Positions 20,037-31,525 of a stretch of 64,000 nt of DNA are shown in pieces. Source of the stretch: a virus. Both the position numbers and the translations under genes were made by a program. Below the pieces are notes generated by a model. It searched no databases. It saw only the letters and a list, made by a program, of their open reading frames with translations, and had not been told where the DNA came from. How positions within the stretch are numbered: the first letter of the stretch is position 1; each line of letters opens with the position of its first letter. The DNA lies in the IMG/VR virus record IMGVR_UViG_3300023174_000140, positions 1 to 64,000 of that record; one strand, given 5' to 3'.

Positions 20037-20304
20037 TGCACCTTTATATTTTGCTATTATATTAAGTATTGTTTTTGCTGTTTATATATATTTTAGCTAC
20101 AATGAATAAGTTATTTTGTATTGAAATACTACAAGAGAAACCAGTAATATCATTTGATGAATTACTATTAGTTAAATATGAAATAGATAATAGTGAAATA
20201 AGAGTTGATTAATAATAAATAGATGATAGCAGTATAGTGATTATAGAATATATATTTTAATTTTGGGCTATTGACATTAAACTAATTTGGTATATTATTA
20301 GCCT

Positions 20305-20757
20305 ATGAAGCTAATTAATACTACCTCATATTGTTCTGAAAAGTTAAAAGAAATTATTAAATGGTGCTTGCCCCAAGGATTGCACCTTAAAGATATTAGA
20401 AAAATAGACTTTGGTAATACCAAAATTGGTTGGCATGGCAGAGCATGGGGAAGCATGAGGGTGCATATTGCAGTTCCAAATTATTCTATTTATAAAAAGC
20501 CTTATAAGAGTGGAGGGTTTAGAGGATATTTACCAGTTAAGAGTTATAGCTGGGAAGAATCATTAGTAGAATTAGTTGCCCATGAAGTAAGACATATATG
20601 GCAATACAAGAAAGATAAGTTCTATCATGGTATTAAAAAGATAAGAAAATATAATATGGGTACTAGGGCTAAATTAAGTGAAGTAGATGCTAGTTTATAT
20701 GCTATTAGAAAGATAAGAGAATATAGAAAGAGTAGTATTAAATTTAATTTGGTTTGA
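20305..20757 (+). CDS. HExxH zincin-like metallopeptidase-domain protein
   Basis: LVAHEVRHIWQ and downstream EVDA; promoter at 20271. Confidence 0.6.
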   Translation: MKLINTTSYCSEKLKEIIKWCLPQGLHLKDIRKIDFGNTKIGWHGRAWGSMRVHIAVPNYSIYKKPYKSGGFRGYLPVKSYSWEESLVELVAHEVRHIWQYKKDKFYHGIKKIRKYNMGTRAKLSEVDASLYAIRKIREYRKSSIKFNLV

Positions 20758-20834
20758 CTTAAGTAGTTGATTATTATATATTTACGTATCGGCGGAGCCC
20801 GCGTGCGTAAATCCTTGAATATCAGCACTTTATA
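20758..20834. repeat. 77-bp double-palindrome element, copy 1
   Basis: 29-bp dyad + TATCGGCGGAGCCCGCGTG (19 bp) + CGTAAATCCTTGAATATCAGCACTTTATA. Confidence 0.8.
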
Positions 20835-20930
20835 AAAAATTATCTTAGGATACGTAAATCCTTGCACAACATTATCTTATGACATGAAAAAAGTTCTTGT
20901 CACAGTTTAAAAGTGTGGTATGATTAACAT

Positions 20931-21788
20931 ATGGCTAGAACAACAAAACCCGCTCAAAGTGTATACGATTTCGATATACATCAAGAGCCACTCCTCACAA
21001 CCGACGGCAAGAGGACAGGATACTTCGGGATGGTACGCCGTGATACCCCCGAACCCATGACACTCGGAGTTTGCACCGAGCAGTATGGTGTGGTGAAGAA
21101 TGCAGACCTTGTGGAAATGGTCGAAGAGTCGCTGGCTCAGAACAGCATGCTCATGAATCACACTTCTAAGAAGTTCGTGGTTCGTGATGGTGCTCGTTTC
21201 TACGCTAGCTATGACTTTACTGACTTCAAGACTGAATTGAAGCCAGTTGGCAAGCGTGCCAAGGGAGACATTCTTGGACTGCGGTTGACTGTGAATAACA
21301 GTTATGATCGCTCCAGCCGTGTCTCGTTAACCCTCGGTTTCCTCCGTTTGGTTTGCACCAACGGAATGAAATCGTTGACCAAGGAGTTCAGCATGACGAA
21401 ACGCCACACGTTGGCCGTCAATCTGGATTTCATTGGTGATGCGTTGGCTAACGCTGTCTCCAGCGTTGACAACTCTGTAGCAATCTTCAATAGGTTGGCG
21501 CAGAAGGCAATTACTGACGAGCAGGGTTTGACCTTGCTCACCAAGTTGGAAGAGAAGGATGTCATCTCTGCTAAGGTGCGTGAAGGCATCGAAGCAGTCT
21601 GGCGGAACCCTTCTTACGAGGAAGATACTGACCGCAACCTGTACAATTTGTACAATGCGTCAACTCAGTTCTTGACTCGCAATGTGGCGGATGAACGCTA
21701 TGAGTATAGCGAGCGCATCAGCACCGACCTGCTCAAGGTCTTCAGCGGAAAAACCCGTGATGAAGAGCTCTTGAAGTTGGTTGCCTAA
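20931..21788 (+). CDS. DUF932-family protein
   Basis: LGVCTEQYGVVKN, NSYDRSS, RLVCTNGM, NLYNLYNASTQFLT. Confidence 0.85.
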   Translation: MARTTKPAQSVYDFDIHQEPLLTTDGKRTGYFGMVRRDTPEPMTLGVCTEQYGVVKNADLVEMVEESLAQNSMLMNHTSKKFVVRDGARFYASYDFTDFKTELKPVGKRAKGDILGLRLTVNNSYDRSSRVSLTLGFLRLVCTNGMKSLTKEFSMTKRHTLAVNLDFIGDALANAVSSVDNSVAIFNRLAQKAITDEQGLTLLTKLEEKDVISAKVREGIEAVWRNPSYEEDTDRNLYNLYNASTQFLTRNVADERYEYSERISTDLLKVFSGKTRDEELLKLVA

Positions 21789-21808
21789 ACTAAAACGAAA
21801 CTTTAACA

Positions 21809-21840
21809 GAGGCGGAGGGCAAAACCCTCCGCTTCTTTTT
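21809..21840 (+). terminator. intrinsic terminator
   Basis: GCGGAGGG-CAAAA-CCCTCCGC followed by TTCTTTTT. Confidence 0.9.
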
Positions 21841-21857
21841 GCTCAAATTAAAAAATG

Positions 21858-21934
21858 TATAAGTCGTTGATTATCAAGCATTTACGTCGGGCGAGCCCCC
21901 GCATGCGTAAATCGTTATCTATCAAAGGTTTACA
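21858..21934. repeat. 77-bp double-palindrome element, copy 2
   Basis: TATAAGTCGTTGATTATCAAGCATTTACG-19bp-CGTAAATCGTTATCTATCAAAGGTTTACA. Confidence 0.9.
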
Positions 21935-21972
21935 ATTCTTGACATTTATATTATTTATGTTATATTTATGAG

Positions 21973-22314
21973 ATGAAAGCCAAACATAAAGTATATTATA
22001 ATTTACATAAGCATTGTCTTTCTATTATGCTTCGTGGTAAAGTATTAGAGCATAGCACAGAATTCTTTTTGAAGGATGTAGAGTTTAGAGTGAGTCAAGC
22101 TGGCAGAAACAGAGTATTAAAAGAACAAAGAAAGAATGTTCACGCTTTTGTGTGTGGCACTCCAGATGATGGATGGCCAATAGATCAAACTGAAAGAAAG
22201 GTTACCTATAATCCTTATAAGTTTAATAGTTTTGTTTATTCTGATACTCTTGAGCCAGTATATAAAGCTAAATGGGTTGGAGTTATTAATCGTGATATTT
22301 TTGTCTTGAATTAA
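21973..22314 (+). CDS. conserved hypothetical phage protein (VYYNLHK...VSQAGRNRVLKEQRKNVHAFV)
   Basis: widespread phage motif; promoter at 21939. Confidence 0.8.
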   Translation: MKAKHKVYYNLHKHCLSIMLRGKVLEHSTEFFLKDVEFRVSQAGRNRVLKEQRKNVHAFVCGTPDDGWPIDQTERKVTYNPYKFNSFVYSDTLEPVYKAKWVGVINRDIFVLN

Positions 22315-22339
22315 TCTAAAAGTATAGTAGAATTATCTA

Positions 22340-22495
22340 ATGGAAATCACTAAAGCCAAAAAACTAAAGGAGGGTGGCTACGCACTATACGCAGTTGACC
22401 CTAAAACTAAAACCGAAACCCAAGTTGGATATATTGGAGAAAATCTGACTTTGGAAGCGTGGCTTCCTAAAGGAGTTAAAATTGAAAATTCTTGA
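22340..22495 (+). CDS. small hypothetical protein (51 aa)
   Basis: below cutoff; MEITKAKKLKEGGYALYAV... Confidence 0.55.
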   Translation: MEITKAKKLKEGGYALYAVDPKTKTETQVGYIGENLTLEAWLPKGVKIENS

Positions 22496-22895
22496 AGAAT
22501 CTTTTACTAGCAGAGGCTTTAAGTTCACGATGATTGGTCGTGATGGAGATGTTGCAATCTATAAAAAACAATTAGATGAAGTAGACAGCGAAGCCTATAA
22601 CTATGAAGTTATCGCTATCAAACGCCACAATGGTTACGAGATTGCAGGTGTGAAGATGCCTCCTGCTGAAATGTATCCAAGCGATAGTCAATGGGGTGAT
22701 TGGGCTTTCACTTGCTCTACTCGTGAAGATGCAGATAAACGATTTGTTCAACTAAAAGAAAAACTATCAGCTTATGTTGCCACAGCAACTTTGCCTAATG
22801 GTGAGAAGCGTGGTCGTGGCCGTCCTCGGAAGAGTAATGTTCTTCCAGCACCTCCAGCAGAAATTCACTTGACACCAGAACAATTAGCAGTATAA
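22482..22895 (+). CDS. hypothetical protein with C-terminal AT-hook
   Basis: KRGRGRPRK; EMYPSDSQWG.WAFT motif; AAGGAG upstream of TTG. Confidence 0.7.
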   Translation: MKILEESFTSRGFKFTMIGRDGDVAIYKKQLDEVDSEAYNYEVIAIKRHNGYEIAGVKMPPAEMYPSDSQWGDWAFTCSTREDADKRFVQLKEKLSAYVATATLPNGEKRGRGRPRKSNVLPAPPAEIHLTPEQLAV

Positions 22896-22902
22896 TCCGA
22901 TT

Positions 22903-23139
22903 ATGACATACAAATGTGCAGTAAGCGGTGAAGCACTTTCACCAGAGAGAGTTGAGGCTCTGCAAGTCCTCGGCGTTCCAGAGAGTCAATGGACAAAGAA
23001 AGAATATAGTCAGACAAAAAAACTACGAGCTGTATATGCAGGTGATGATGGCAGTAATGACATCGTGATTTGTGATGCAGTAGATGGTGGCTCTATGTTT
23101 GATAATGCAGTAGCATTGGAGGTAGAAAATGAATCTTAA
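22903..23139 (+). CDS. degenerate TraR/DksA-C4-like protein
   Basis: CAVSGEALSPERVEAL resembles CxxCGExIpxxRLxA. Confidence 0.4.
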   Translation: MTYKCAVSGEALSPERVEALQVLGVPESQWTKKEYSQTKKLRAVYAGDDGSNDIVICDAVDGGSMFDNAVALEVENES

Positions 23140-23287
23140 GTATATCGTTTTGCGAGATGGAGTTCGTGTGAGTGAAGATATGCACTCAAAGATTGAAGAT
23201 GCCGAGCAAGAAGCGGAGTTTTGGCGTAAAGTCATCCGCTCTTGGCCTGATGGAACGAAAGTTACCATCAAGAAAATCGGTGGATAA
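23129..23287 (+). CDS. small hypothetical protein (52 aa)
   Basis: below cutoff; GGAGG upstream. Confidence 0.6.
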   Translation: MNLKYIVLRDGVRVSEDMHSKIEDAEQEAEFWRKVIRSWPDGTKVTIKKIGG

Positions 23288-23326
23288 CTTCGGAGGCTGA
23301 CATTGAGCTACGGCTTAGTGTTGATT

Positions 23327-23417
23327 GCTAGGGTCGTCTAACTGGTTAAGACCCACGACTTATACTCGTGAAGCTCTAGATTTGAGCGTAATGAAGGTTC
23401 GAATCCTTCCCCTAGTA
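23327..23417 (+). tRNA. tRNA with TAT anticodon (Ile, AUA-reading) and long variable arm
   Basis: GCTAGGG/CCCTAGT, CACGA-CTTATAC-TCGTG, V-arm GCTC/GAGC, GAAGG-TTCGAAT-CCTTC. Confidence 0.85.
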
Positions 23418-23484
23418 TGTAAAGCCTTATCATTCAACGAATTATTTTTATTGACTATTTCTCTAACTCTTGTATATTAAACCT

Positions 23485-23694
23485 ATGACAAACAAACAAT
23501 CAGTTCCATTCTATGTGATGAATGTGTTCGGCCAAGATCGAGCTATCATCCTAAACACCTCAATCCGTATGTGCACAACCAAAGAGACTTGTTCTCTCAA
23601 AGACTTGGAAAATTATGCCAAGGCTTTTGCAGTAGAGTTCTTTCAAGTGCCAAAACCTTCCAGCTTTCCAGCTAAAGTGGGGCAAGTAGTTTAA
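23485..23694 (+). CDS. hypothetical protein overlapping 5' end of tRNA(CAT)
   Basis: leaderless promoter at 23451 gives ATG 23485. Confidence 0.6.
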   Translation: MTNKQSVPFYVMNVFGQDRAIILNTSIRMCTTKETCSLKDLENYAKAFAVEFFQVPKPSSFPAKVGQVV

Positions 23695-23751
23695 AGGTGA
23701 AACAGAGAACTCATAATTCTCCTAGTGCTGGTTCGAGTCCAGCCTTGCCCA
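23680..23751 (+). tRNA. tRNA-Met/Ile2(CAT)
   Basis: GGGCAAG/CTTGCCC, GAGAA-CTCATAA-TTCTC, GCTGG-TTCGAGT-CCAGC; lacks initiator features. Confidence 0.9.
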
Positions 23752-23878
23752 CTTCTCCTTCTGCAGATTGGATGCTCAATTCCTATAGTAAGTATTGTGA
23801 GCCATCTCAAGAGGACATAGATTGGTATTTTAACAATAAAAGTATTGACAAAAAACAAAAACAGGATAACATTAAACT

Positions 23879-24265
23879 ATGAAACTAATTAAACAAAACC
23901 TCGGTGCTCATTGGGTCATCGGGATTAAAGGCAACAAGGACGAGATTGAGCAGTTCCACAATCGAGTCTATAATTGGGGTGGAACAAACGGAGAGCTTCA
24001 ATGGATGAGTAATGACTTTGCTTATTTTTGGATTACTCTCGAAAAGTTAGAGCGAGTGATGTTTAAGTATGTTATGAATGGTATCACAGATAAACTTGGC
24101 AAAAAGTTTCGTGGTGCTAAAGGTGGATTGAAAGCAGTTGCGATGAATCGTATTAAGAATACTATTGATAATATTCCAAACGAACATTTTGTTCGCACAG
24201 CACAAGTGGAGGATATTTATTCCCTCGGAACAATCTCTGCTGAAAAATTAGATAACGATAGCTAA
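23879..24265 (+). CDS. hypothetical protein, paralogue of 30763..31182
   Basis: YNWGGTNGEL, KGGL, YSLGTISAEK; promoter at 23845. Confidence 0.8.
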   Translation: MKLIKQNLGAHWVIGIKGNKDEIEQFHNRVYNWGGTNGELQWMSNDFAYFWITLEKLERVMFKYVMNGITDKLGKKFRGAKGGLKAVAMNRIKNTIDNIPNEHFVRTAQVEDIYSLGTISAEKLDNDS

Positions 24266-24271
24266 AAAATC

Positions 24272-24344
24272 CGCCTAGTAGCCCAATGGCAGAGGCAAAC
24301 GACTTAAAATCGTTATAGTGTCAGTTCGAGTCTGACCTAGGCGA
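24272..24344 (+). tRNA. tRNA-Leu(TAA) with short variable loop
   Basis: CGCCTAG/CTAGGCG, AACGA-CTTAAAA-TCGTT, GTCAG-TTCGAGT-CTGAC. Confidence 0.9.
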
Positions 24345-24354
24345 AAAATTTGTT

Positions 24355-24428
24355 GCTCCTATAACTCAACTGGAGAGAGTAACAGTTTTCTAAACTGTAG
24401 GTTGCAGGTTCGATCCCTGCTAGGAGCG
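24355..24428 (+). tRNA. tRNA-Arg(TCT)
   Basis: GCTCCTA/TAGGAGC, ACAGT-TTTCTAA-ACTGT, GCAGG-TTCGATC-CCTGC. Confidence 0.9.
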
Positions 24429-24830
24429 AAATACTTTCTCTAAATAAAAAATAAAATGTACTCTATTTATGTGAGAAATATTTTTGATAAATTTGGCGTA
24501 GAGTTTTTTGTTTTATTTTTAATGTTAGCGATATCGTGGGGCGGAATACAAGAGATACTGAAAATTATAATTACACATCTAAAGTAAGATTTGCCAAATA
24601 TCTAATAGGATATAATAAATAGTTGAAATATTTCCTAAATAATTGTAATATATATTGATATGAAAAGCGAAAATAGATTGAGCAAAATACTTGAGAAAAG
24701 AATCTTACAAAACGAAGATCCTAAGACTATTGCTCAAATAGATAAGTTTTTAAATAATTTAGAAGTTGTTTTCGTAAAGTGGGCGAAAGCTCATCCCAAT
24801 TGGAAAGAATCAGAAGAATAATTAAACTGT

Positions 24831-24907
24831 TGTAAGTTGTTGGTTATTAACTATTTACATTCGCGGGGGCTCTTCATGCGTAAGTCGTTGACTATCAACG
24901 AGATTTA
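24831..24907. repeat. 77-bp double-palindrome element, copy 3
   Basis: TGTAAGTTGTTGGTTATTAACTATTTACA-19bp-CGTAAGTCGTTGACTATCAACGAGATTTA. Confidence 0.9.
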
Positions 24908-24955
24908 ATTTAAGATTTTTCTTGTGAAAAAACAAAGGTATGGTATATTTAACCT

Positions 24956-25222
24956 ATGAACAAAATCAAAAACGCAATCATATACGCAACCTCATATCTG
25001 AAACACTTCGTCCTTTTCCTCTTGGGGCAAAGGTATTTAATCGAATACAAACCCTATGGTAAGGAGCAGGTTTATACCTACATCATCAGCAAACCCTCTT
25101 CTCATACCATCAGCAAGGCAGGGAATAAGCTATTCACTAGCTTCTGCTTTTCTGGTCGTATGGATTCTGGCGTGAAGCAATTCCGCTATGATCGAATCGC
25201 TGGTGGTCTTTCGCCAGTCTAA
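24956..25222 (+). CDS. small WYL-like domain protein
   Basis: IEY...SFCF...VKQFRYDRI resembles WYL RxFRxDRI. Confidence 0.45.
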   Translation: MNKIKNAIIYATSYLKHFVLFLLGQRYLIEYKPYGKEQVYTYIISKPSSHTISKAGNKLFTSFCFSGRMDSGVKQFRYDRIAGGLSPV

Positions 25223-25242
25223 AAACAGAAAGACATTATAGA

Positions 25243-25275
25243 AAGGGCGAGGCCTAAAAAACCTCGCCTTTTTTA
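25243..25275 (+). terminator. intrinsic terminator
   Basis: GGCGAGG/CCTCGCC hairpin followed by T-run. Confidence 0.85.
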
Positions 25276-25309
25276 TTGCAGATAAACAAAAGTATGTTAA
25301 GATAGTTTT

Positions 25310-25523
25310 AGTTCTTCGATATCAGAGAAGGTTGACCGCAAGGTTGCAGTTCTGGAAAGTTTCTAATGGAAACATTAGTTATATATAACGGAACGCCAAT
25401 ACTTCTCTTGGCGAGTCTGACTAACTCCCATAAGAGGATGAACCTGCCAACGCCCAGAGTCAGAGGCGAAAGAGGAGCAGGATATTCCTTTACGAAATCA
25501 TGAGCGTAGAGGGTCGAAGAACT
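25310..25523 (+). ncRNA. candidate structured ncRNA C (214 nt)
   Basis: TTGCAG-N16-TAAGAT predicts TSS at first base of 11-bp closing stem AGTTCTTCGAT/GTCGAAGAACT; GNRA hairpins ACC-GCAA-GGT and CTAATG-GAAA-CATTAG; CGCCAA/TTGGCG; TCTGACT/AGTCAGA; CCTTTACG/CGTAGAGG. Confidence 0.75.
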
Positions 25524-25701
25524 AATTTTTATTACGCCATTTTTCTCTGTGATTGAAAACCCAATCTAACAGAGCTTTTTCAAAACCAATATCGTGTCCT
25601 GCTTTTTCGCTTTCGAGCCATTTGTGCTTTAGGATTTCATTTCGCTCTTCAATAAACTTTTTATATAGAGCAGACGATTCAAGTAAACCAGAAACCTTCA
25701 T
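25522..25701 (-). CDS. DUF4032-like microprotein (59 aa)
   Basis: LYKKFIEERNEILKHKWLESEKAGHDIGFEKALLDW; GTGTAA-N8-ATG upstream; below track cutoff. Confidence 0.75.
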   Translation of the reverse strand: MKVSGLLESSALYKKFIEERNEILKHKWLESEKAGHDIGFEKALLDWVFNHREKWRNKN

Positions 25702-25715
25702 ATATTATATTACAC

Positions 25716-25829
25716 CTATTCCCACGGCATCCACATCGTGGCAAACTCTTCTTCGAGTTTTTCTATTTTTTGTTGTTGTGCCATTTCGTTTGCGAGTTGC
25801 TTCAATGCTTTCATATCATCTAAATACAT
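25716..25829 (-). CDS. small hypothetical protein (37 aa)
   Basis: AAGGAG SD and TTGACA promoter on minus strand (25885). Confidence 0.5.
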   Translation of the reverse strand: MYLDDMKALKQLANEMAQQQKIEKLEEEFATMWMPWE

Positions 25830-25889
25830 ATTAGCTCCTTTGGTTAGTGTTAACTTAACATTAACATATTATATTAATTTGTCAATGTT

Positions 25890-25966
25890 TATATCTCTTT
25901 GATAGCCAAGCATTTACGTCGGCAGGGGCTCTTGCGATGTAAATCGTTGATACTCAATGAAATTTA
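25890..25966. repeat. 77-bp double-palindrome element, copy 4 (between divergent promoters)
   Basis: TATATCTCTTTGATAGCCAAGCATTTACG-19bp-TGTAAATCGTTGATACTCAATGAAATTTA. Confidence 0.85.
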
Positions 25967-26004
25967 AATGTAGACAAAAAACAAAACTCTGATATATTTA
26001 AACT

Positions 26005-26844
26005 ATGAAAGTAAACGAAATTATCACCGAAAAATTCATCGAAGCCCTCAACAAAGGTGTCATCCCTTGGCAGAAGCCTTGGAAAGTTTTTGACCTCTGC
26101 AACGGAGTTTCCAAAAAGAATTATAGGGGCATCAATCAATTTTTGCTACGGATGCTGGCTTCTGATGATTTCTTTTTTACATTCAATCAGATTAAGGAAC
26201 TAGGTGGGAGAATCAAAAAGGGCGCTAAGTCTCATATGGTAGTTTATTACAAACTCCTCAAAACAGAAAGCAACAATGAAACCAAAACTTTCCCCATGAT
26301 GAGATTCTATAAAGTTTTTGGATTGAGTGATATTGAGGGCATGAAGTGGAAACAGCCCGAAGTTAAGAAGCTGGATTTTTCACCAGTAGAAGAAGCAGAA
26401 AAGTTGATTAACAAGTGCGTGATTCAGATTAAACATGGTGGAAGTCGTGCCTGTTATTATCCACAGGAACATAAGATTGATTTGCCCCCAAAAGAAAACT
26501 TCACCAGCGTTGAGGAGTATTATTCTACAGCGTTCCATGAGATTGGTCACGCTATGCACAAGGCTACAAGCGATGAAGTGAAGAATGGATTTGGAACGCA
26601 GAATTATAGCAAAGAAGAATTGACAGCAGAGATTTTTGCAAGCCTTTGCCTTAACTTCTGCGGAATTGATTCGGAAAAATGCTTTAACAATTCTGCGAGC
26701 TATCTTTCAAGCTGGCTTCAAGTTTTGAAAAAAGATATGAACTTTATCATCTCAGCTTCTAGCAAAGCCCAAAAAAGATTTGATGCTTTTATTGATAGAA
26801 AAGAAAGCGAAGAGATTCCAGAAGAAGAAGCTGCAACTGCTTAA
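26005..26844 (+). CDS. ardC: ArdC-like antirestriction protein (ssDNA-binding DUF1738 + zincin domain)
   Basis: PWQKPW, YRGIN, TFNQIKELGGRIKKG, YYSTAFHEIGH, YSKEELTAE, SASYLSSWL. Confidence 0.9.
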   Translation: MKVNEIITEKFIEALNKGVIPWQKPWKVFDLCNGVSKKNYRGINQFLLRMLASDDFFFTFNQIKELGGRIKKGAKSHMVVYYKLLKTESNNETKTFPMMRFYKVFGLSDIEGMKWKQPEVKKLDFSPVEEAEKLINKCVIQIKHGGSRACYYPQEHKIDLPPKENFTSVEEYYSTAFHEIGHAMHKATSDEVKNGFGTQNYSKEELTAEIFASLCLNFCGIDSEKCFNNSASYLSSWLQVLKKDMNFIISASSKAQKRFDAFIDRKESEEIPEEEAATA

Positions 26845-26908
26845 GTCTCAACGATTTACGCAAGCAACCTCCCTGCATATGTAAGTCATTGATAGTCAAT
26901 GAGATTTA
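26832..26908. repeat. 77-bp double-palindrome element, copy 5 (left arm overlaps ardC stop)
   Basis: ..TCAACGATTTACG-CAAGCAACCTCCCTGCATA-TGTAAGTCATTGATAGTCAATGAGATTTA. Confidence 0.85.
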
Positions 26909-26956
26909 ATTGTAAAAAAAACTTGTCCCAAAACAAAAACGTGGTAACCTATTTTT

Positions 26957-27592
26957 ATGTTCAAAAACAAAAAACAAGCCGAAGAGATTGTTGGCACACT
27001 CTCAAAACCCTCAAAGATGCCTGGATATGCTTATTCAACGCCCGCAAAGCGTTGTCTTATCGGGCAGAAAATGCGGAATGTTGTAGGAAGCATTTGTGCT
27101 TTTTGCTATGCTCTTAAAGGGCGTTATGTTTTCCCCAATGTTCAAAAAGCTATGGAAAAGCGTTTTGCTTCTCTTACCAATGATTTGTGGGTGGATGCTA
27201 TGACATACTTAATCGGCAAGGTTAAGAATCCGCATTTCAGGTGGCACGATTCGGGCGATTTGCAAGGTGTGTGGCATATTGAAAAGATTGTGAAGATTGC
27301 AAAGAATCTTCCTCACATTTCTTTTTGGCTTCCAACTCGTGAATATGCTTTCGTTTCAACCTATATTGAACAAGGCGGTGAAGTTCCTAGCAATCTTACT
27401 ATCCGTTTGTCTGCTCTGATGATGGATGGCCCCGCACCCGTAGGAATTGCACAACGCCTTGGCTTATGCGTTAGCGGTGCAAGCAAGTTAGGAAACTTTA
27501 ACTGCCCAAGCTCCAAGCAAGGCAACAAGTGCGGTGATTGTCGCAAGTGTTGGGATAAAAATGAGTTTGCAATCGACTATAAAAAGCATTAA
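26957..27592 (+). CDS. Gp88-like protein (Cys-rich, radical-SAM-like)
   Basis: SKMPG, C...CAFCYA.KG.Y, FRWHDSGD, FWLPTRE, NLTIRLS, CP...CGDCRKCW. Confidence 0.8.
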   Translation: MFKNKKQAEEIVGTLSKPSKMPGYAYSTPAKRCLIGQKMRNVVGSICAFCYALKGRYVFPNVQKAMEKRFASLTNDLWVDAMTYLIGKVKNPHFRWHDSGDLQGVWHIEKIVKIAKNLPHISFWLPTREYAFVSTYIEQGGEVPSNLTIRLSALMMDGPAPVGIAQRLGLCVSGASKLGNFNCPSSKQGNKCGDCRKCWDKNEFAIDYKKH

Positions 27593-27824
27593 GATGTCTA
27601 GATGACATTAATCTTTTTAATTATCCTTGGAATATTATTATCACTATTTATAACATACTAAAATGAAAATTGAAAAACTCTTAAATGAAAATCTAGAATC
27701 TTTTTATCCTTGGAATGATTCTGATAATCCTCCACTCGACACAAACAAAAGTTTTGTAGAAAAACAGAGAGAGATTGACGAAGTATTCGAAGGTTGGCGA
27801 GCGAGTATGTAAAAAACTTGCTGG

Positions 27825-27901
27825 TGTAAGTCTTTGATTATCAAGGATTTACATCGGCGGCCTCCCTGCGTGCGTAAGTTGTTGATAACCAACTACTTAC
27901 T
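27825..27901. repeat. 77-bp double-palindrome element, copy 6 (at strand convergence)
   Basis: TGTAAGTCTTTGATTATCAAGGATTTACA-19bp-CGTAAGTTGTTGATAACCAACTACTTACT. Confidence 0.9.
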
Positions 27902-28160
27902 CACCACATAAATTTTCATCACCAGCCCAGCCAAAATCCTCCATTTGATAACACCCGCCATTATAGTCTTCGTCAGTTCCATGGCCAGCAGAAGCCATAG
28001 CAGAGTCGAAGTCGCCATCCATAGAGTCGTCTGGCTCGTTCGAGGTTTCGGATTTGATAGCGCGATCATCTTCGCGCATCTGGTTAAGGATGTCGCGCAC
28101 ATCCAGCGGAGACAGCATATGCTGGCTCATCCACTCCTTGAGAGAGGCTTTGTAGTCCAT
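27897..28160 (-). CDS. very acidic protein (DGDFDSAMASAGHGTDEDY motif)
   Basis: GGAGG SD places start at 28160; ASAGxGTDEDY motif recurs in phage early proteins. Confidence 0.7.
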   Translation of the reverse strand: MDYKASLKEWMSQHMLSPLDVRDILNQMREDDRAIKSETSNEPDDSMDGDFDSAMASAGHGTDEDYNGGCYQMEDFGWAGDENLCGE

Positions 28161-28161
28161 A

Positions 28162-28326
28162 TTATTTGACCTCCACAATAGTTTCATTGGAGCCATAGAC
28201 TCCAGACAACGCATCGAGCATTGCATTAACTTCATCATTGGAATTGATGAAATCAAAGAACGCATTAGCGTCCGCATAAACTTCCTCGCAGGTTTCCGTC
28301 GATAGAGCTGTGATTTCGTTTGTCAT
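28162..28326 (-). CDS. small acidic protein (54 aa, MTNEITALST...)
   Basis: below cutoff; TTGCGC-N16-TACATT-N6-ATG on minus strand. Confidence 0.65.
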   Translation of the reverse strand: MTNEITALSTETCEEVYADANAFFDFINSNDEVNAMLDALSGVYGSNETIVEVK

Positions 28327-28381
28327 AGATTAAATGTATCACAGATTATTTTTAGCGCAACATTTATTTTTAAAAAAATTG

Positions 28382-28450
28382 AATAGAAGAATTGCTAATA
28401 GTAAATAGGAAATAGCCTAATAGGAAATAGCTCAATACAAAATAGGAAAT
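28382..28450. repeat. short tandem AATAGGAAAT(AG) repeats
   Basis: AATAGGAAAT three times plus degenerate AATAG units. Confidence 0.7.
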
Positions 28451-28487
28451 CACAATATCAAAATGTTATGCCCGATTTATCTTTATG

Positions 28488-28564
28488 CGTAAGTCGTTGA
28501 CTATCAAGGGTTTACGCGCGCGGCGGGCTTTCTTTTGTAAGTGTTTGATAATCAACATATTTGA
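28488..28564. repeat. 77-bp double-palindrome element, copy 7
   Basis: CGTAAGTCGTTGACTATCAAGGGTTTACG-19bp-TGTAAGTGTTTGATAATCAACATATTTGA. Confidence 0.9.
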
Positions 28565-28632
28565 TCTTTTACTTTCATTCAGGTTTTGTCTAAAAATCGG
28601 TTTGGATCTTTTGCTTTCGTTCAGGTTTTGTC
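28563..28632. repeat. 28-bp direct repeat x2, 42-bp period
   Basis: GATCTTTTRCTTTCRTTCAGGTTTTGTC at 28563 and 28605. Confidence 0.9.
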
Positions 28633-28646
28633 GCAAGATCAGATTT

Positions 28647-28723
28647 TATAAGTTGTTATTTGTTAAGGATTTACGCAAAAAACCTCCCTGCATGCGTAAA
28701 TTGTTGATACTTAGTTACTTACA
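28647..28723. repeat. 77-bp double-palindrome element, copy 8
   Basis: TATAAGTTGTTATTTGTTAAGGATTTACG-19bp-CGTAAATTGTTGATACTTAGTTACTTACA. Confidence 0.85.
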
Positions 28724-28875
28724 GCAGGTCTCGAAGATTCAAACAACTCGCAGAAAGATAGTAAAAAAATCTTTCACGCAAAAAGTTTTTCTGCTCACCA
28801 TTTTTCACAGCGAGTCTATAAGTTTTTTTATTTATTTTGAAAAGTATTTTTTTCATTCGTATTGTTAAGTCCATA

Positions 28876-29082
28876 TTATTTGCTCAACCTTTCTTGTGCA
28901 TCTTTGAGATATTCAAGAGCTTCTCTGATTGATTCGTTTTGCCAACCTTTTGTATAAGGTTTGACTGCTTCTAATTTAATCACAGCAACCGAGAGGCAAC
29001 CTTTTGCCCATCCTTTGTTGTGTGCTTCATTCATTATTTTTTCAACTTCAATTTCCATATTAGTCTCCTTTATATTGTCCAC
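28876..29082 (-). CDS. hypothetical protein
   Basis: minus-strand run; start may be the second Met. Confidence 0.6.
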   Translation of the reverse strand: MDNIKETNMEIEVEKIMNEAHNKGWAKGCLSVAVIKLEAVKPYTKGWQNESIREALEYLKDAQERLSK

Positions 29083-29479
29083 CGCTGTTATATGCTTCAG
29101 AGATTCCAGCAGAGATTCTTTTAGTCAATTTTACTTGTTCTAAAAGTTCTTCGGTTGATTCAACTTTTTTAATGTCGAAGTATTTTCCAACACTCGTCAA
29201 AAGTTCATATCCACCCGAAAGAGTCCAAAGCATTAGATTCTTTAAGAAAGGTAGGTTTGAGTAATGGCTATGCTCTTTTTCATCAGCATACCAGATTTCG
29301 GTTTCAGTAGTTTCACCACCGATTCTCCAAAACGATTTATAGGAAACTTGGATAAAGTCTCCTGCTTTGATGTTGAGCGAACGGAAAGCCTCAACTGCTT
29401 CTTTTTCTTTGCGAGCATTTTCAGCCCTAGCAAGTATCATTTTTTCTCTGAATTGTTTATTCTTTTCTTTTGTTGTCAT
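29060..29479 (-). CDS. hypothetical protein
   Basis: leaderless promoter TTGACA at 29513. Confidence 0.75.
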   Translation of the reverse strand: MTTKEKNKQFREKMILARAENARKEKEAVEAFRSLNIKAGDFIQVSYKSFWRIGGETTETEIWYADEKEHSHYSNLPFLKNLMLWTLSGGYELLTSVGKYFDIKKVESTEELLEQVKLTKRISAGISEAYNSGGQYKGD

Positions 29480-29518
29480 ATCTATAATCTATCACACTTT
29501 CCTATTTTGTCAAGCTAT

Positions 29519-29547
29519 TAAATTTCGTTGATTTACAACGACTTAGG
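29519..29547. repeat. single 29-bp palindrome (half element)
   Basis: TAAATTTCGTTGATTTACAACGACTTAGG. Confidence 0.75.
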
Positions 29548-29721
29548 ACTTTTCCCATTAAGTTTTGCCTTTAGTAAGGCGTGAGCTTTAGCCTTTTCAG
29601 GATTATTCTTTTTCCATTCAGACCATCGCTTTTTACGATTAGCCCAAAGAGCTTGATTTTTTTCTTTGCGTTGAATTTCCCATTCTTGGGAAGTTAATTG
29701 TTTTTTATTATCATTATTCAT
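29533..29721 (-). CDS. small basic protein
   Basis: stop lies within the half element. Confidence 0.6.
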   Translation of the reverse strand: MNNDNKKQLTSQEWEIQRKEKNQALWANRKKRWSEWKKNNPEKAKAHALLKAKLNGKSPKSL

Positions 29722-29722
29722 T

Positions 29723-29998
29723 TTATTTATTTTCCTTTATTAGTTTAGCGTTATTAAGGTTGATAGTTCCAACCTTATCTTTATCTTTACCTTCTAGGAA
29801 GGTTACAACCGCAGTATTTGCAGAAGTTTTGTAAGAAACTTTTACTAGAGTTCCTTCGTAAAGGTATATTTCACCAAAGTAAGTTGGTGTATTGTTAGAG
29901 TTAGTAATGATTACTTCTTCAGAAGCATTCATATTTTTTCGCATATTTTCACGCATTTGTTTTCGTTGAAAATTCCAGTTTATCATTCTATGAGTCAT
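29723..29998 (-). CDS. hypothetical protein
   Basis: minus-strand run. Confidence 0.6.
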   Translation of the reverse strand: MTHRMINWNFQRKQMRENMRKNMNASEEVIITNSNNTPTYFGEIYLYEGTLVKVSYKTSANTAVVTFLEGKDKDKVGTINLNNAKLIKENK

Positions 29999-30071
29999 TT
30001 TATTTTTTTCTTTCTTTGTTATTTGTTATCTTTTATCTTATGTATATAGTTTACCACAATTCCTGCAAAAG

Positions 30072-30260
30072 TCAAATTATTTCTTCAATTTGTTTTTCGT
30101 TGATTATCATAGAGTTATGATGAGCAACTTCAACTTTGTGTTCATATTTCGAGAAACTTTCATCGAGTCTCTTTTGGGATTCTTCAACGGCTTTTTTGAG
30201 GTCAGCCGAAGCTTTGTCTAAATTTCCGAGGAGGATTTCTAATTTTGTTTTTCTTTTCAT
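30072..30260 (-). CDS. small helical protein, paralogue of 31299..31448
   Basis: K.E.L..NL.KAS.DLK.A...KVE..H; promoter TTGCAA at 30294. Confidence 0.75.
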   Translation of the reverse strand: MKRKTKLEILLGNLDKASADLKKAVEESQKRLDESFSKYEHKVEVAHHNSMIINEKQIEEII

Positions 30261-30308
30261 ACTTATAATCTATCAGATTTTAGGATTTTTGCAAGATATT
30301 TTTTCATT

Positions 30309-30385
30309 TAAATTTCATTGACCATCAACGATTTACGCACGCAGGGAGCCCGCATGTGTAAGTCGTTGATATTCAATTACTTACA
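30309..30385. repeat. 77-bp double-palindrome element, copy 9 (overlaps SleB-like stop)
   Basis: TAAATTTCATTGACCATCAACGATTTACG-19bp-TGTAAGTCGTTGATATTCAATTACTTACA. Confidence 0.9.
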
Positions 30386-30758
30386 ACTTGTAAAACTTGT
30401 GGTTGTGTATTGTAGCCACTAGCCTTGCATTCCTAGACCACCTAGGAGCTACGCTAATGGCGTGGTAATGGTTCGCACCCCTTACGATATCGGGCATCTG
30501 CTGATGAATCACAAGGTCTGCGAGGTAGAGAGCGTTCTTACCTTGTGGTGTTGATAGTAGTTTCTTTTTGGTAGCTTCACTTACTCCACCATTCCAGAAG
30601 CTAAACTGCTTTGGTGATAAGCATACTTCTTTAGCAGATTGATGACGCTCTATCATCCTTGTTTGGATAACGCTAGCTACACCAGCCATACCTTCCATAC
30701 CTTCACCCCTAGCTTCACCCAAGAGCGTTAATGCTACAATGAATAGTTCTGCTGTCAT
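30381..30758 (-). CDS. SleB/CwlJ-like cell wall hydrolase (Hydrolase_2)
   Basis: LTLLGEARGEG..GM.GVA.VI..R, QFSFWN, GANHYH, P.W, HKFY. Confidence 0.9.
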   Translation of the reverse strand: MTAELFIVALTLLGEARGEGMEGMAGVASVIQTRMIERHQSAKEVCLSPKQFSFWNGGVSEATKKKLLSTPQGKNALYLADLVIHQQMPDIVRGANHYHAISVAPRWSRNARLVATIHNHKFYKL

Positions 30759-30762
30759 AGGA

Positions 30763-31182
30763 TTAGTCCCTTCCGTTGCTTACTGCACCGCAGTAGTCAG
30801 AAGGTTTCTCTGCACTGATAGTTCCAAGGCTGTATCCCTCGGAGCTACTCGCACCCCATAGGAAACAGGTTTGCCCCATAGCATCCACGATGCTCTGTGC
30901 TTTTGCCTTGGCAAGGTCAAGCAATCCACCCTTACGCCCCTTGGCGTTAATCTTATTCACGAGAGAGTGAAGAGCGACCTTGGTAAGAGCGTGCATCACA
31001 TCATCGGGATGAGCGTAGAAGTAGAACGCTTTGCCGTTGCCCATATCGTGCAACTTGCCGTTAGTTCCTTCCCAATTATATATAGAATTGAAGAAGTGAT
31101 TAATTTGTTTTATGTTTCCTTCGAGGAGGTAAGCATTGTTTTCGCCGAAGGTTTGGTAACTGATTTTTAGGTTTTGTTTCAT
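30763..31182 (-). CDS. hypothetical protein, paralogue of 23879..24265
   Basis: YNWEGTNGKL, KGGL, YSLGTISAEK; TTGACG promoter places start at 31182. Confidence 0.8.
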   Translation of the reverse strand: MKQNLKISYQTFGENNAYLLEGNIKQINHFFNSIYNWEGTNGKLHDMGNGKAFYFYAHPDDVMHALTKVALHSLVNKINAKGRKGGLLDLAKAKAQSIVDAMGQTCFLWGASSSEGYSLGTISAEKPSDYCGAVSNGRD

Positions 31183-31221
31183 AGGTTGTATATTGCCTTT
31201 CTGTTTATGTTTCGTCAAGTA

Positions 31222-31302
31222 TTATTTTGCTGTTACCATACCATAGATGCCCACGAGGATGCTTCCAATGGTAAGGGTGAAGATGAGGGTGTCGATATTC
31301 AT
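31222..31302 (-). CDS. 26-aa single-TM peptide (MNIDTLIFTLTIGSILVGIYGMVTAK)
   Basis: ATGA-coupled to upstream ORF. Confidence 0.5.
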   Translation of the reverse strand: MNIDTLIFTLTIGSILVGIYGMVTAK

Positions 31303-31448
31303 TTAGTCATCGCTTCCTGATGGATAGCTTCCACCTTTTGAGCGTGAGCGTCAAGGGTTGCGATGGCCTTTGTAGAGGCATCCTTAAGGTCTTGGCTAGC
31401 CTTGTTGAGGTTGGCAATCAGTTGTTCGTATTTGCTTAATTTCTTCAT
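31299..31448 (-). CDS. 49-aa helical protein, paralogue of 30072..30260
   Basis: MKKLSKYEQLIANLNKASQDLKDA...KVEAIH; promoter TTGCAG at 31482. Confidence 0.75.
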   Translation of the reverse strand: MKKLSKYEQLIANLNKASQDLKDASTKAIATLDAHAQKVEAIHQEAMTK

Positions 31449-31496
31449 ATAGGTAATCTATCACAGAATAGATTTTCTGCAACATATTTCTTCATT

Positions 31497-31525
31497 TAAA
31501 TTTCATTGATAGTCAACAAGATACG
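31497..31525. repeat. single 29-bp palindrome (half element), last of array
   Basis: TAAATTTCATTGATAGTCAACAAGATACG. Confidence 0.75.

Follow-up and report, generated by a model that had tools for sequence, protein, structure and literature searches.

The window analysed here is a 64,000-nucleotide stretch of viral DNA, positions 1 to 64,000 of IMG/VR record IMGVR_UViG_3300023174_000140, which is a virus fragment of 76.8 kb and about half complete. Positions 20759-31524 form an island of genes punctuated by a repeated double palindrome, the element with which this work is concerned. Each full copy comprises a 27-nt dyad (12+3+12), a G+C-rich spacer of 21 nt and a second dyad, about 75 nt in all; the dyad consensus is GTAAGTCGTTGA-N3-TCAACGACTTAC. 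The island has a higher G+C content than the remaining genome and holds four of its five tRNA genes. Its products include a DUF932 protein, a homologue of mycobacteriophage L5 gp82, an ArdC protein made up of ArdcN and a zincin peptidase domain, a GP88-family protein and a cell-wall hydrolase, along with many small proteins that have no family match. Genes up to 27.8 kb are read rightward, those between 27.9 and 31.4 kb leftward. The terminase matches of the record are remote and come from Firmicutes phages, its nearest cultured relatives are remote too, and none of its PHROG matches is to T4-type structural genes.

A repeat finder returned eight to nine full copies, starting at 20759, 21859, 24832, 25891, 26833, 27826, 28489, 28648 and 30310 (E1 to E9), and single-dyad sites at 29520 and 31498 (H1 and H2). 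An earlier reading of this DNA, made from the letters alone and called here the sequence-only reading, had placed nine full and two half copies at these sites, and was right to within 1 nt. The distance from dyad start to dyad start is 48 in 9/9 full copies, with zero indels, at a pairwise likeness of only 60-80%; the spacer is 67% G+C in a genome of 31% G+C. Because length is kept without conservation of sequence, the rigid pairing argues for selection on spacing within each lineage. A degenerate dyad pattern allowing ≤3 mismatches matched the window 17 times when 0.17 matches were expected, a count reached by 0/100 shuffles. A position weight matrix scan of the whole 76.8-kb record confined the dyads to 20759-31524, in agreement with the earlier claim that the element occurs only in this island, apart from two weak matches at 13123 and 65760 that are probably due to chance. 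The same scan added a relic single dyad at 23419 and a weak dyad at 30092, and a repeat family (D8) from the repeat finder contributed a weak half site at 20853 (20853-20880). No near-identical match to the island was found among 50,697 phage records, and Rfam, run on the window and ten loci, returned tRNAs only and no family for the element.

The elements lie at the ends of genes and in front of promoters. At six places the preceding gene stops inside a dyad or ≤2 nt from one, with stop codons at 20757, 26844, 27897, 28719, 29533 and 30381; all but 28719 had already been listed in the sequence-only reading. Many elements are followed by a sigma-70-type promoter in which 6-7 nt separate the end of the -10 hexamer from the start codon, a distance at which the messages, and so the first genes of most island units, would be leaderless. 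Such promoters, given from promoter to start codon, lie at 20271-20305, 20897-20931, 21939-21973, 23451-23485, 24922-24956, 25971-26005, 29513-29479 (-) and 28357-28326 (-). At nine sites the centre of the promoter-proximal dyad is 53-54 or 63-64 nt before the leaderless ATG, and these nine include all three single dyads (23419, 29520 and 31498). Since single dyads suffice at three promoters, it is the promoter-proximal dyad that appears to be coupled to the promoter.

On the rightward-transcribed side (+ strand), E1 (20759-20833; dyads 20759-20785 and 20807-20833) begins 2 nt past the stop of gene 20305-20757, and E2 (21859-21933) lies between a terminator-like site (21808-21836) and a promoter (21939-21966), its proximal dyad centred 53 nt upstream of ATG 21973. 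The relic single dyad (23419-23445) directly follows the tRNA-Ile gene; a promoter (23451-23478) starts 5 nt on, and the dyad is centred 53 nt upstream of ATG 23485. E3 (24832-24906) precedes a promoter at 24922-24949 and has its proximal dyad centred 63 nt upstream of ATG 24956. The ArdC cassette is bounded on the left by E4 (25891-25965; promoter 25971-25998, proximal dyad centre 53 nt upstream of ATG 26005) and on the right by E5 (26833-26907), whose dyad 1 contains the ardC stop codon and whose proximal dyad is centred 63 nt upstream of ATG 26957, the start of the GP88-like gene. E6 (27826-27900, +) is the most conserved copy, with 0 and 1 mismatches in its dyads; it lies between convergent + and - strand genes, has no promoter, and its dyad 2 contains the stop of the - strand gene 27897-28277.

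E7 (28489-28563) has no assigned strand; 176 nt separate it from the leaderless - strand start downstream of it, at 28326. Likewise without strand is E8 (28648-28722), within whose dyad 2 the - strand gene 28719-28874 has its stop codon. Two 42-bp tandem repeats (28560-28643; family D10, 81% alike) occupy the interval from E7 to E8. A double element with 84-87 bp of filler, like E7-E8, also occurs in the related phage locus L009 and, at another position, in L012. H1 (29520-29546, -) is centred 54 nt upstream of the - strand ATG 29479, with a promoter at 29513-29486, and contains the stop of gene 29533-29721. E9 (30310-30384, -) follows - strand transcription: its proximal dyad is centred 63 nt upstream of the - strand ATG 30260, and its distal dyad contains the stop of the cell-wall hydrolase gene 30381-30758. 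The island's last dyad, H2 (31498-31524, -), is centred 63 nt upstream of the - strand ATG 31448.

An exact scan of IMG/VR with half a dyad found 119 loci; at least three dyads, mostly paired, were present in 58 of them, giving at least 58 related contigs. Pair spacing was constant per contig and fell into lineage classes of 34, 40-42, 48, 50-52 and 58-60, so the geometry is not universal. The fixed 29-19-29 layout of the sequence-only reading is thus borne out within this genome and fails in its relatives, in which variable spacer length, named there in advance as a finding that would tell against the proposal, was indeed observed. The differing spacings also led us to reject a single helical phase linking both dyads. 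Three complete relatives, G001, G002 and G003, have genomes of 172, 167 and 148 kb and terminases 78, 54 and 39% identical to that of the record; in each, the dyads are limited to one or two clusters. The dyad consensus is constant across phages whose islands range from 33 to 49% G+C, and the spacer is G+C-rich in every class. Folding stronger than that of shuffled sequence was seen for the 58-60 class alone, the spacer of which has a G+C-rich hairpin (z = -2.65). A spacer acting as a terminator hairpin was rejected for the present phage, as the 48-class spacers fold no better than shuffles.

Whether a palindrome is kept as a hairpin or as a double-stranded protein site can be read from its arms. 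Among 503 distinct dyads, the Watson-Crick fraction equalled the product of the column frequencies at 12/12 arm pairs; at pair 5/23, the most variable, it was 0.433, with 0.415 given by the column frequencies. Mismatches of the G:U and A:C kinds were equally frequent, with no strand bias. Pair-counting on 150 dyads gave 78.4% of cells paired vs 77.9% after shuffling, a level as high being reached in 87/500 shuffles; the covariation score of the same dyads was matched by 63/500. At positions 5/23 and 8/20, half of the copies have no pair. The arms do not covary and each keeps its own consensus, so the palindrome is conserved as a predicted double-stranded site for a symmetric protein, not as a hairpin.

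These counts bear directly on the possibility that the palindromes act as RNA or single-stranded DNA hairpins, whether as terminators, RNase III or mRNA-stabilising structures, cruciforms, or single-strand promoters like those of plasmid leading regions. Position and context offer that possibility some support: elements start at or in the stop codon of the preceding gene; promoter-proximal dyads form a shortened stem and then a T-rich tail, and one of them, 24885-24901, is called terminator-like; in Bacteroidota the dyad comes after tRNA genes and before a T run; the 58-60 class spacer has the significant hairpin just mentioned (z = -2.65); and, in having ArdC and DUF932 genes, the island resembles plasmid leading regions. 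Set against this are the lack of compensatory change, with pairing at the shuffled expectation, the equal G:U and A:C counts, spacers in the 48-bp class that fold like shuffled sequence, and the absence of an Rfam family match. E2, moreover, is hardly transcribed, because it is placed after a separate canonical terminator and before a promoter. We regard hairpin function as very improbable. As a further candidate, the dyad was considered as an intrinsic terminator, with a G+C-rich stem and a direct T run, and was rejected: 24885-24901 is the sole dyad called terminator-like, and the canonical terminator-like site at 21808-21836 is separate from E2.

The conserved columns of the 503 dyads read WATCAR-N4-TTR on both arms, which is the consensus for integration host factor (IHF) (10.1101/382655); the match that the sequence-only reading had noticed for each half-dyad thus holds across the whole set. 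The central triplet is polar, the favoured form having exactly one of T13 and A15 and so an off-centre TA step, which fits a bent site. In the IHF-DNA structure, one WATCAR lies between kinks 9 bp apart. In the present palindrome the two inverted motifs overlap by one base and are not both usable by one IHF dimer, so assignment to the DNABII (HU/IHF) proteins is a lead rather than a result. The palindrome could be two alternative IHF-type sites or the site of a homodimeric relative. A full-text literature search for the dyad half-sites turned up unrelated primers only.

Several known systems combine these features in part. IHF sites at IHF-assisted promoters or origins of Proteobacteria and phages resemble the dyad in that each arm reads WATCAR-N4-TTR and in lying upstream of promoters; in bacteria the dyad also lies near dnaA and DnaA-box-like sequences. 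Unlike those sites, whose consensus fills only one half of the footprint, it is a near-perfect palindrome; its binding is predicted, and it stands at background in 60 sampled genomes of the phylum to which one 'Enterobacterales' bin is assigned (see below).

In the bacterial interspersed mosaic elements (BIME) known as RIB or RIP in E. coli, repetitive extragenic palindromic (REP) sequences flank an IHF site, and REP hairpins are species-specific and tied to the RAYT transposase. Both they and the present elements are composite, extragenic, situated at the ends of transcription units, and built of palindromes and a site for a DNA-bending protein, here a predicted one. The order is reversed in the phage, with two IHF-like palindromes around a G+C-rich core. 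In contrast to REP, REPIN and BIME sequences, the dyad lacks covariation and keeps one consensus across several phyla and many phages, and its copy number in bacteria is in the tens, not the hundreds.

The elements are also the points at which gene content changes. Six close relatives from the 48-bp class were divided into segments at their elements, and these segments were compared. L009 is without the ArdC segment (25966-26832), a single element joining segment 4 to segment 6, and is also without the segments at 29547-30309. In L066 the blocks 21934-23418 and 23446-24831 stand in reversed order with full elements at the junctions, and the window retains the relic dyad (23419) at the corresponding block junction. 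In L068, E7 is missing and an additional cassette sits at the single dyad H1 (29520). The junction element of L009 matches the left element of its nearest relative, L080, in the left flank, dyad 1 (26/27) and spacer (18/21), and the right element of L080 in dyad 2 (25/27) and the right flank. It is a chimera of two neighbouring elements, so the crossover lay inside the element. Across the six relatives and this junction, the ends of insertions, deletions and replacements coincide with elements. The sequence-only reading had counted unchanged gene content at element boundaries as evidence against its proposal, and the opposite was found. Its picture of repeat-bounded cassettes with their own promoters is upheld as regards boundaries, at which content and order change, and only partly as regards promoters, which are not adjacent to three of the elements.

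Exchange at elements is what integron- or shufflon-like sites with a defined crossover point and a dedicated recombinase would produce, and the exact coincidence of cassette presence, absence and order with elements, together with the chimeric junction, speaks for such sites. By our own reading, a 10+7+10 bp division of the dyad would resemble tyrosine recombinase core sites, and some chromosomal dyads adjoin tRNA genes, an integrase gene or a plasmid RepA gene. Matching proteins, though, were not found: no gene in the record and the three complete relatives (G000-G003) matched PF00589 (tyrosine recombinase), PF00239 (serine recombinase) or PF00216 (HU/IHF). An overlap region lacks the symmetry and near-invariance seen in the central TTGA/TCAA; promoters are carried by the cassettes themselves; and the dyads in bacterial chromosomes are mostly solitary and upstream of ordinary genes. 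Like integron attC sites, the elements are imperfect palindromes bounding single-gene cassettes in an array. They differ from attC sites in lacking an integrase match (PF00589, G000-G003), in bounding cassettes that carry promoters, which integron cassettes lack, in conserving sequence where attC conserves fold, and in having a length fixed within the genome. The integron-like recombination system raised in the sequence-only reading thus finds no recombinase gene, and we consider dedicated site-specific recombination quite improbable. A search for an AAA_24/Sak4-type recombinase found none; a RecA-family gene is present in G001, the closest complete relative, so general recombination is available, which is a further point against the need for a dedicated enzyme. 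General homologous recombination between repeated elements has been shown for the promoter-early stem-loops (PeSLs) of T4-type phages (PMC2839356, PMC4122927), and it would be the economical mechanism of exchange here as well.

The likeness to PeSLs extends further. PeSLs, too, are conserved modules of short length that recur between the genes of a hyperplastic region rich in small accessory genes; the modules adjoin sigma-70-type promoters and gene ends, insertions, deletions and replacements between related phages end in them, and exchange between neighbouring copies deletes a cassette (PMC2839356, PMC4122927). A PeSL is defined as a strong sigma-70-like early promoter with a transcription-terminating stem-loop (PMC2839356, PMC4122927). 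Compared with that composite, the present elements have promoter-like sites after 9 dyads and palindromes without selection for pairing, that is, not kept as stem-loops. The anatomy also differs, with two 27-bp palindromes around a G+C-rich spacer that does not vary in length, and with the conserved portion located upstream of the promoter, in a phage clade that is not T4-like. The unit dyad of the present elements, unlike the PeSL, is found in bacterial chromosomes as well.

A perfect-dyad scan of 185,579 species genomes, with a chance expectation of ~0.3, found 26 loci, 24 of which came from metagenome-assembled genomes (MAGs) named Bacteroidota, Fibrobacter (7), Akkermansia/Verrucomicrobiales and Lentisphaerae/Victivallales. 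Most chromosomal loci are a solitary dyad on a large chromosomal contig. Counted over whole genomes at ≤2 mismatches, dyads numbered 15 and 14 in two Fibrobacter genomes, 22 in one of Akkermansia, 19 in one of Cytophagaceae and 14 in one of Verrucomicrobiales, with 0-1 for the reversed pattern used as control. A sample of Fibrobacterota gave ~100 matches in 22/41 genomes vs 5 for the control. The remaining two perfect loci were on one phage-like contig of an 'Enterobacterales' bin (G069), in which all 30 dyads, of the 42-bp class, are on the phage-like contigs C152 and C176 (L127, L132). The rest of this 7.5-Mb bin has no dyads, so the binning is probably wrong; 60 genomes from the phylum of the bin gave 4 matches vs 4 for the control, which is background level. 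As the dyad is common in Fibrobacter and Akkermansia and at background in the control phylum, the protein recognising it is probably host-encoded, and the phage clade probably infects bacteria that use such a protein. The phage-specific nucleoprotein scaffold of the sequence-only reading is accordingly half right: a protein site fits the non-covarying arms, but a dyad common in Fibrobacter and Akkermansia chromosomes is not specific to phages.

By our reading of 3-kb stretches, ~85% of 40 chromosomal dyads sit between open reading frames. Akkermansia dyads lie 80-200 bp upstream of genes for glycosyltransferases, an acyltransferase, a PEP-CTERM protein, DnaA and ArgS, and DnaA-box-like sequences are enriched about tenfold next to them. 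In Fibrobacter several dyads adjoin G+C-rich terminators and two lie upstream of DnaA-family genes. Dyads before DnaA-family genes and near DnaA-box-like sequences were seen at L165 (Akkermansia), L173 and L180 (Fibrobacter G005) and L139:7052-7226, which hints that the binder of the dyad may act at or near replication origins. The dyad itself was rejected as a pair of DnaA boxes, two critical positions being different by our own reading. In Bacteroidota several dyads follow tRNA genes and one adjoins an integrase gene.

The chromosomal dyads also weigh on another explanation, in which the dyads are operators of a phage-encoded regulator, either a repressor silencing the island or an activator acting at a set time, and those in chromosomes are sites of a host relative of that regulator or parts of mobile elements. 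Confinement of the elements to one island in every complete genome would suit an operator, and a spacing that is fixed per lineage and different between lineages suggests a co-evolving partner; many island proteins are of no known function. The consensus, however, is unchanged over islands of 33-49% G+C and terminases 39-78% identical, and the same dyad stands upstream of housekeeping genes (dnaA, argS) in two bacterial phyla. A scan of 81 proteins found no helix-turn-helix or other DNA-binding family, the only such feature being a weak AT-hook (in 22482-22895). We think a phage-encoded regulator unlikely.

The reading that we favour, with moderate confidence, is that the elements are host-factor sites serving as promoter and boundary architecture and doubling, in the manner of PeSLs, as joints for homologous cassette exchange. 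The 27-bp dyad would be bound, as duplex DNA, by a symmetric protein that recognises its sequence. This protein would most likely come from the host and is possibly a DNA-bending protein of the HU/IHF (DNABII) kind, which is suggested because each arm reads WATCAR-N4-TTR. The phage would set dyads at transcription-unit boundaries in one island, with the upstream gene ending in or beside the element. From its position 53-54 or 63-64 nt before a leaderless start, the promoter-proximal dyad would shape or activate the sigma-70-type promoter, and the full double site with its rigid G+C-rich spacer would form the boundary between units. A ~75-bp module recurring roughly every kilobase would also provide homology for general recombination, so that cassettes are lost, gained and reordered exactly at elements. 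A more specific version, which we advance tentatively, is that the dyad is the site of an architectural protein common to Fibrobacterota, Akkermansia and some Bacteroidota, where it lies upstream of dnaA, surface-polysaccharide and other genes, and that a clade of 150-170 kb uncultured phages has copied it in rigid pairs for insulated, exchangeable promoter cassettes.

Several observations weigh against the favoured reading. On the protein side, inverted WATCAR motifs that overlap by one base are unsuited to one IHF dimer. DNABII gene number does not separate dyad-rich from dyad-free Fibrobacterota: every sampled genome of that phylum has at least one such gene, and most have two or three, regardless of dyad count. 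The Verrucomicrobiota sample was patchy, mostly with 0-2 dyads per genome, and the TTGACA/TATAAT-type promoters of this 31% G+C phage do not look like Bacteroidota promoters. As for architecture, the elements at 27826, 28489 and 28648 have no adjoining promoter, E7 and E8 being >170 nt from the next start. Promoter phasing is tight in the 48-bp class only, and distances scatter in the other spacing classes; universal phasing was rejected on this ground, and the phasing in the 48 class may reflect common descent of a dyad-plus-promoter unit. Centre-to-centre spacings across lineages have no common helical phase.

The element provides a sequence-defined joint at which accessory and counter-defence genes, ArdC and DUF932 among them, are exchanged in a clade of uncultured large phages, and so a second example of the PeSL principle, anatomically different and outside the T4 group. 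No description was found in the literature of the conserved 27-bp palindrome that Fibrobacter and Akkermansia chromosomes carry; new here is its occurrence as a single dyad, frequent and mostly intergenic in these genomes. The motif ties the phage clade to a candidate host range; if phages have indeed copied a host site, dyad content would predict the host range of the clade.

Some features beside the dyads merit description. In Akkermansia (MAG G006, L152-L168), 13 dyads are followed, 2-12 nt on, by a second conserved motif of ~27 nt, which includes TGTATAC preceded by the palindrome GCATT-N3-AATGC; the genes downstream encode glycosyltransferases, acyltransferases and PEP-CTERM proteins. A search of the literature on Akkermansia promoter motifs turned up nothing, and the motif has the appearance of a promoter or operator, hitherto undescribed, that would serve a surface-polysaccharide regulon. 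It was rejected as a sigma-54 promoter because, by our own reading, its -24 element lacks GG. In five loci from Bacteroidota MAGs (L133, L142, L148, L126 and L130), a tRNA gene is followed by the dyad, a T run and a common short sequence starting TTTTAGGG, an arrangement that may mark where an integrative element ends or represent a conserved module of terminator and promoter.

Within the island, genes 23879-24265 (+) and 30763-31218 (-) are paralogues of 128 and 151 aa for which a family search gave no match; they have a common C-terminal YSLGTISAEK motif, and relatives occur in about ten related phage loci. The tRNA-Ile gene preceding the relic dyad (23326-23418; ARAGORN, anticodon TAT) is 93 nt long, some 20 nt above the other four phage tRNAs, and may carry a long variable arm or an insert.

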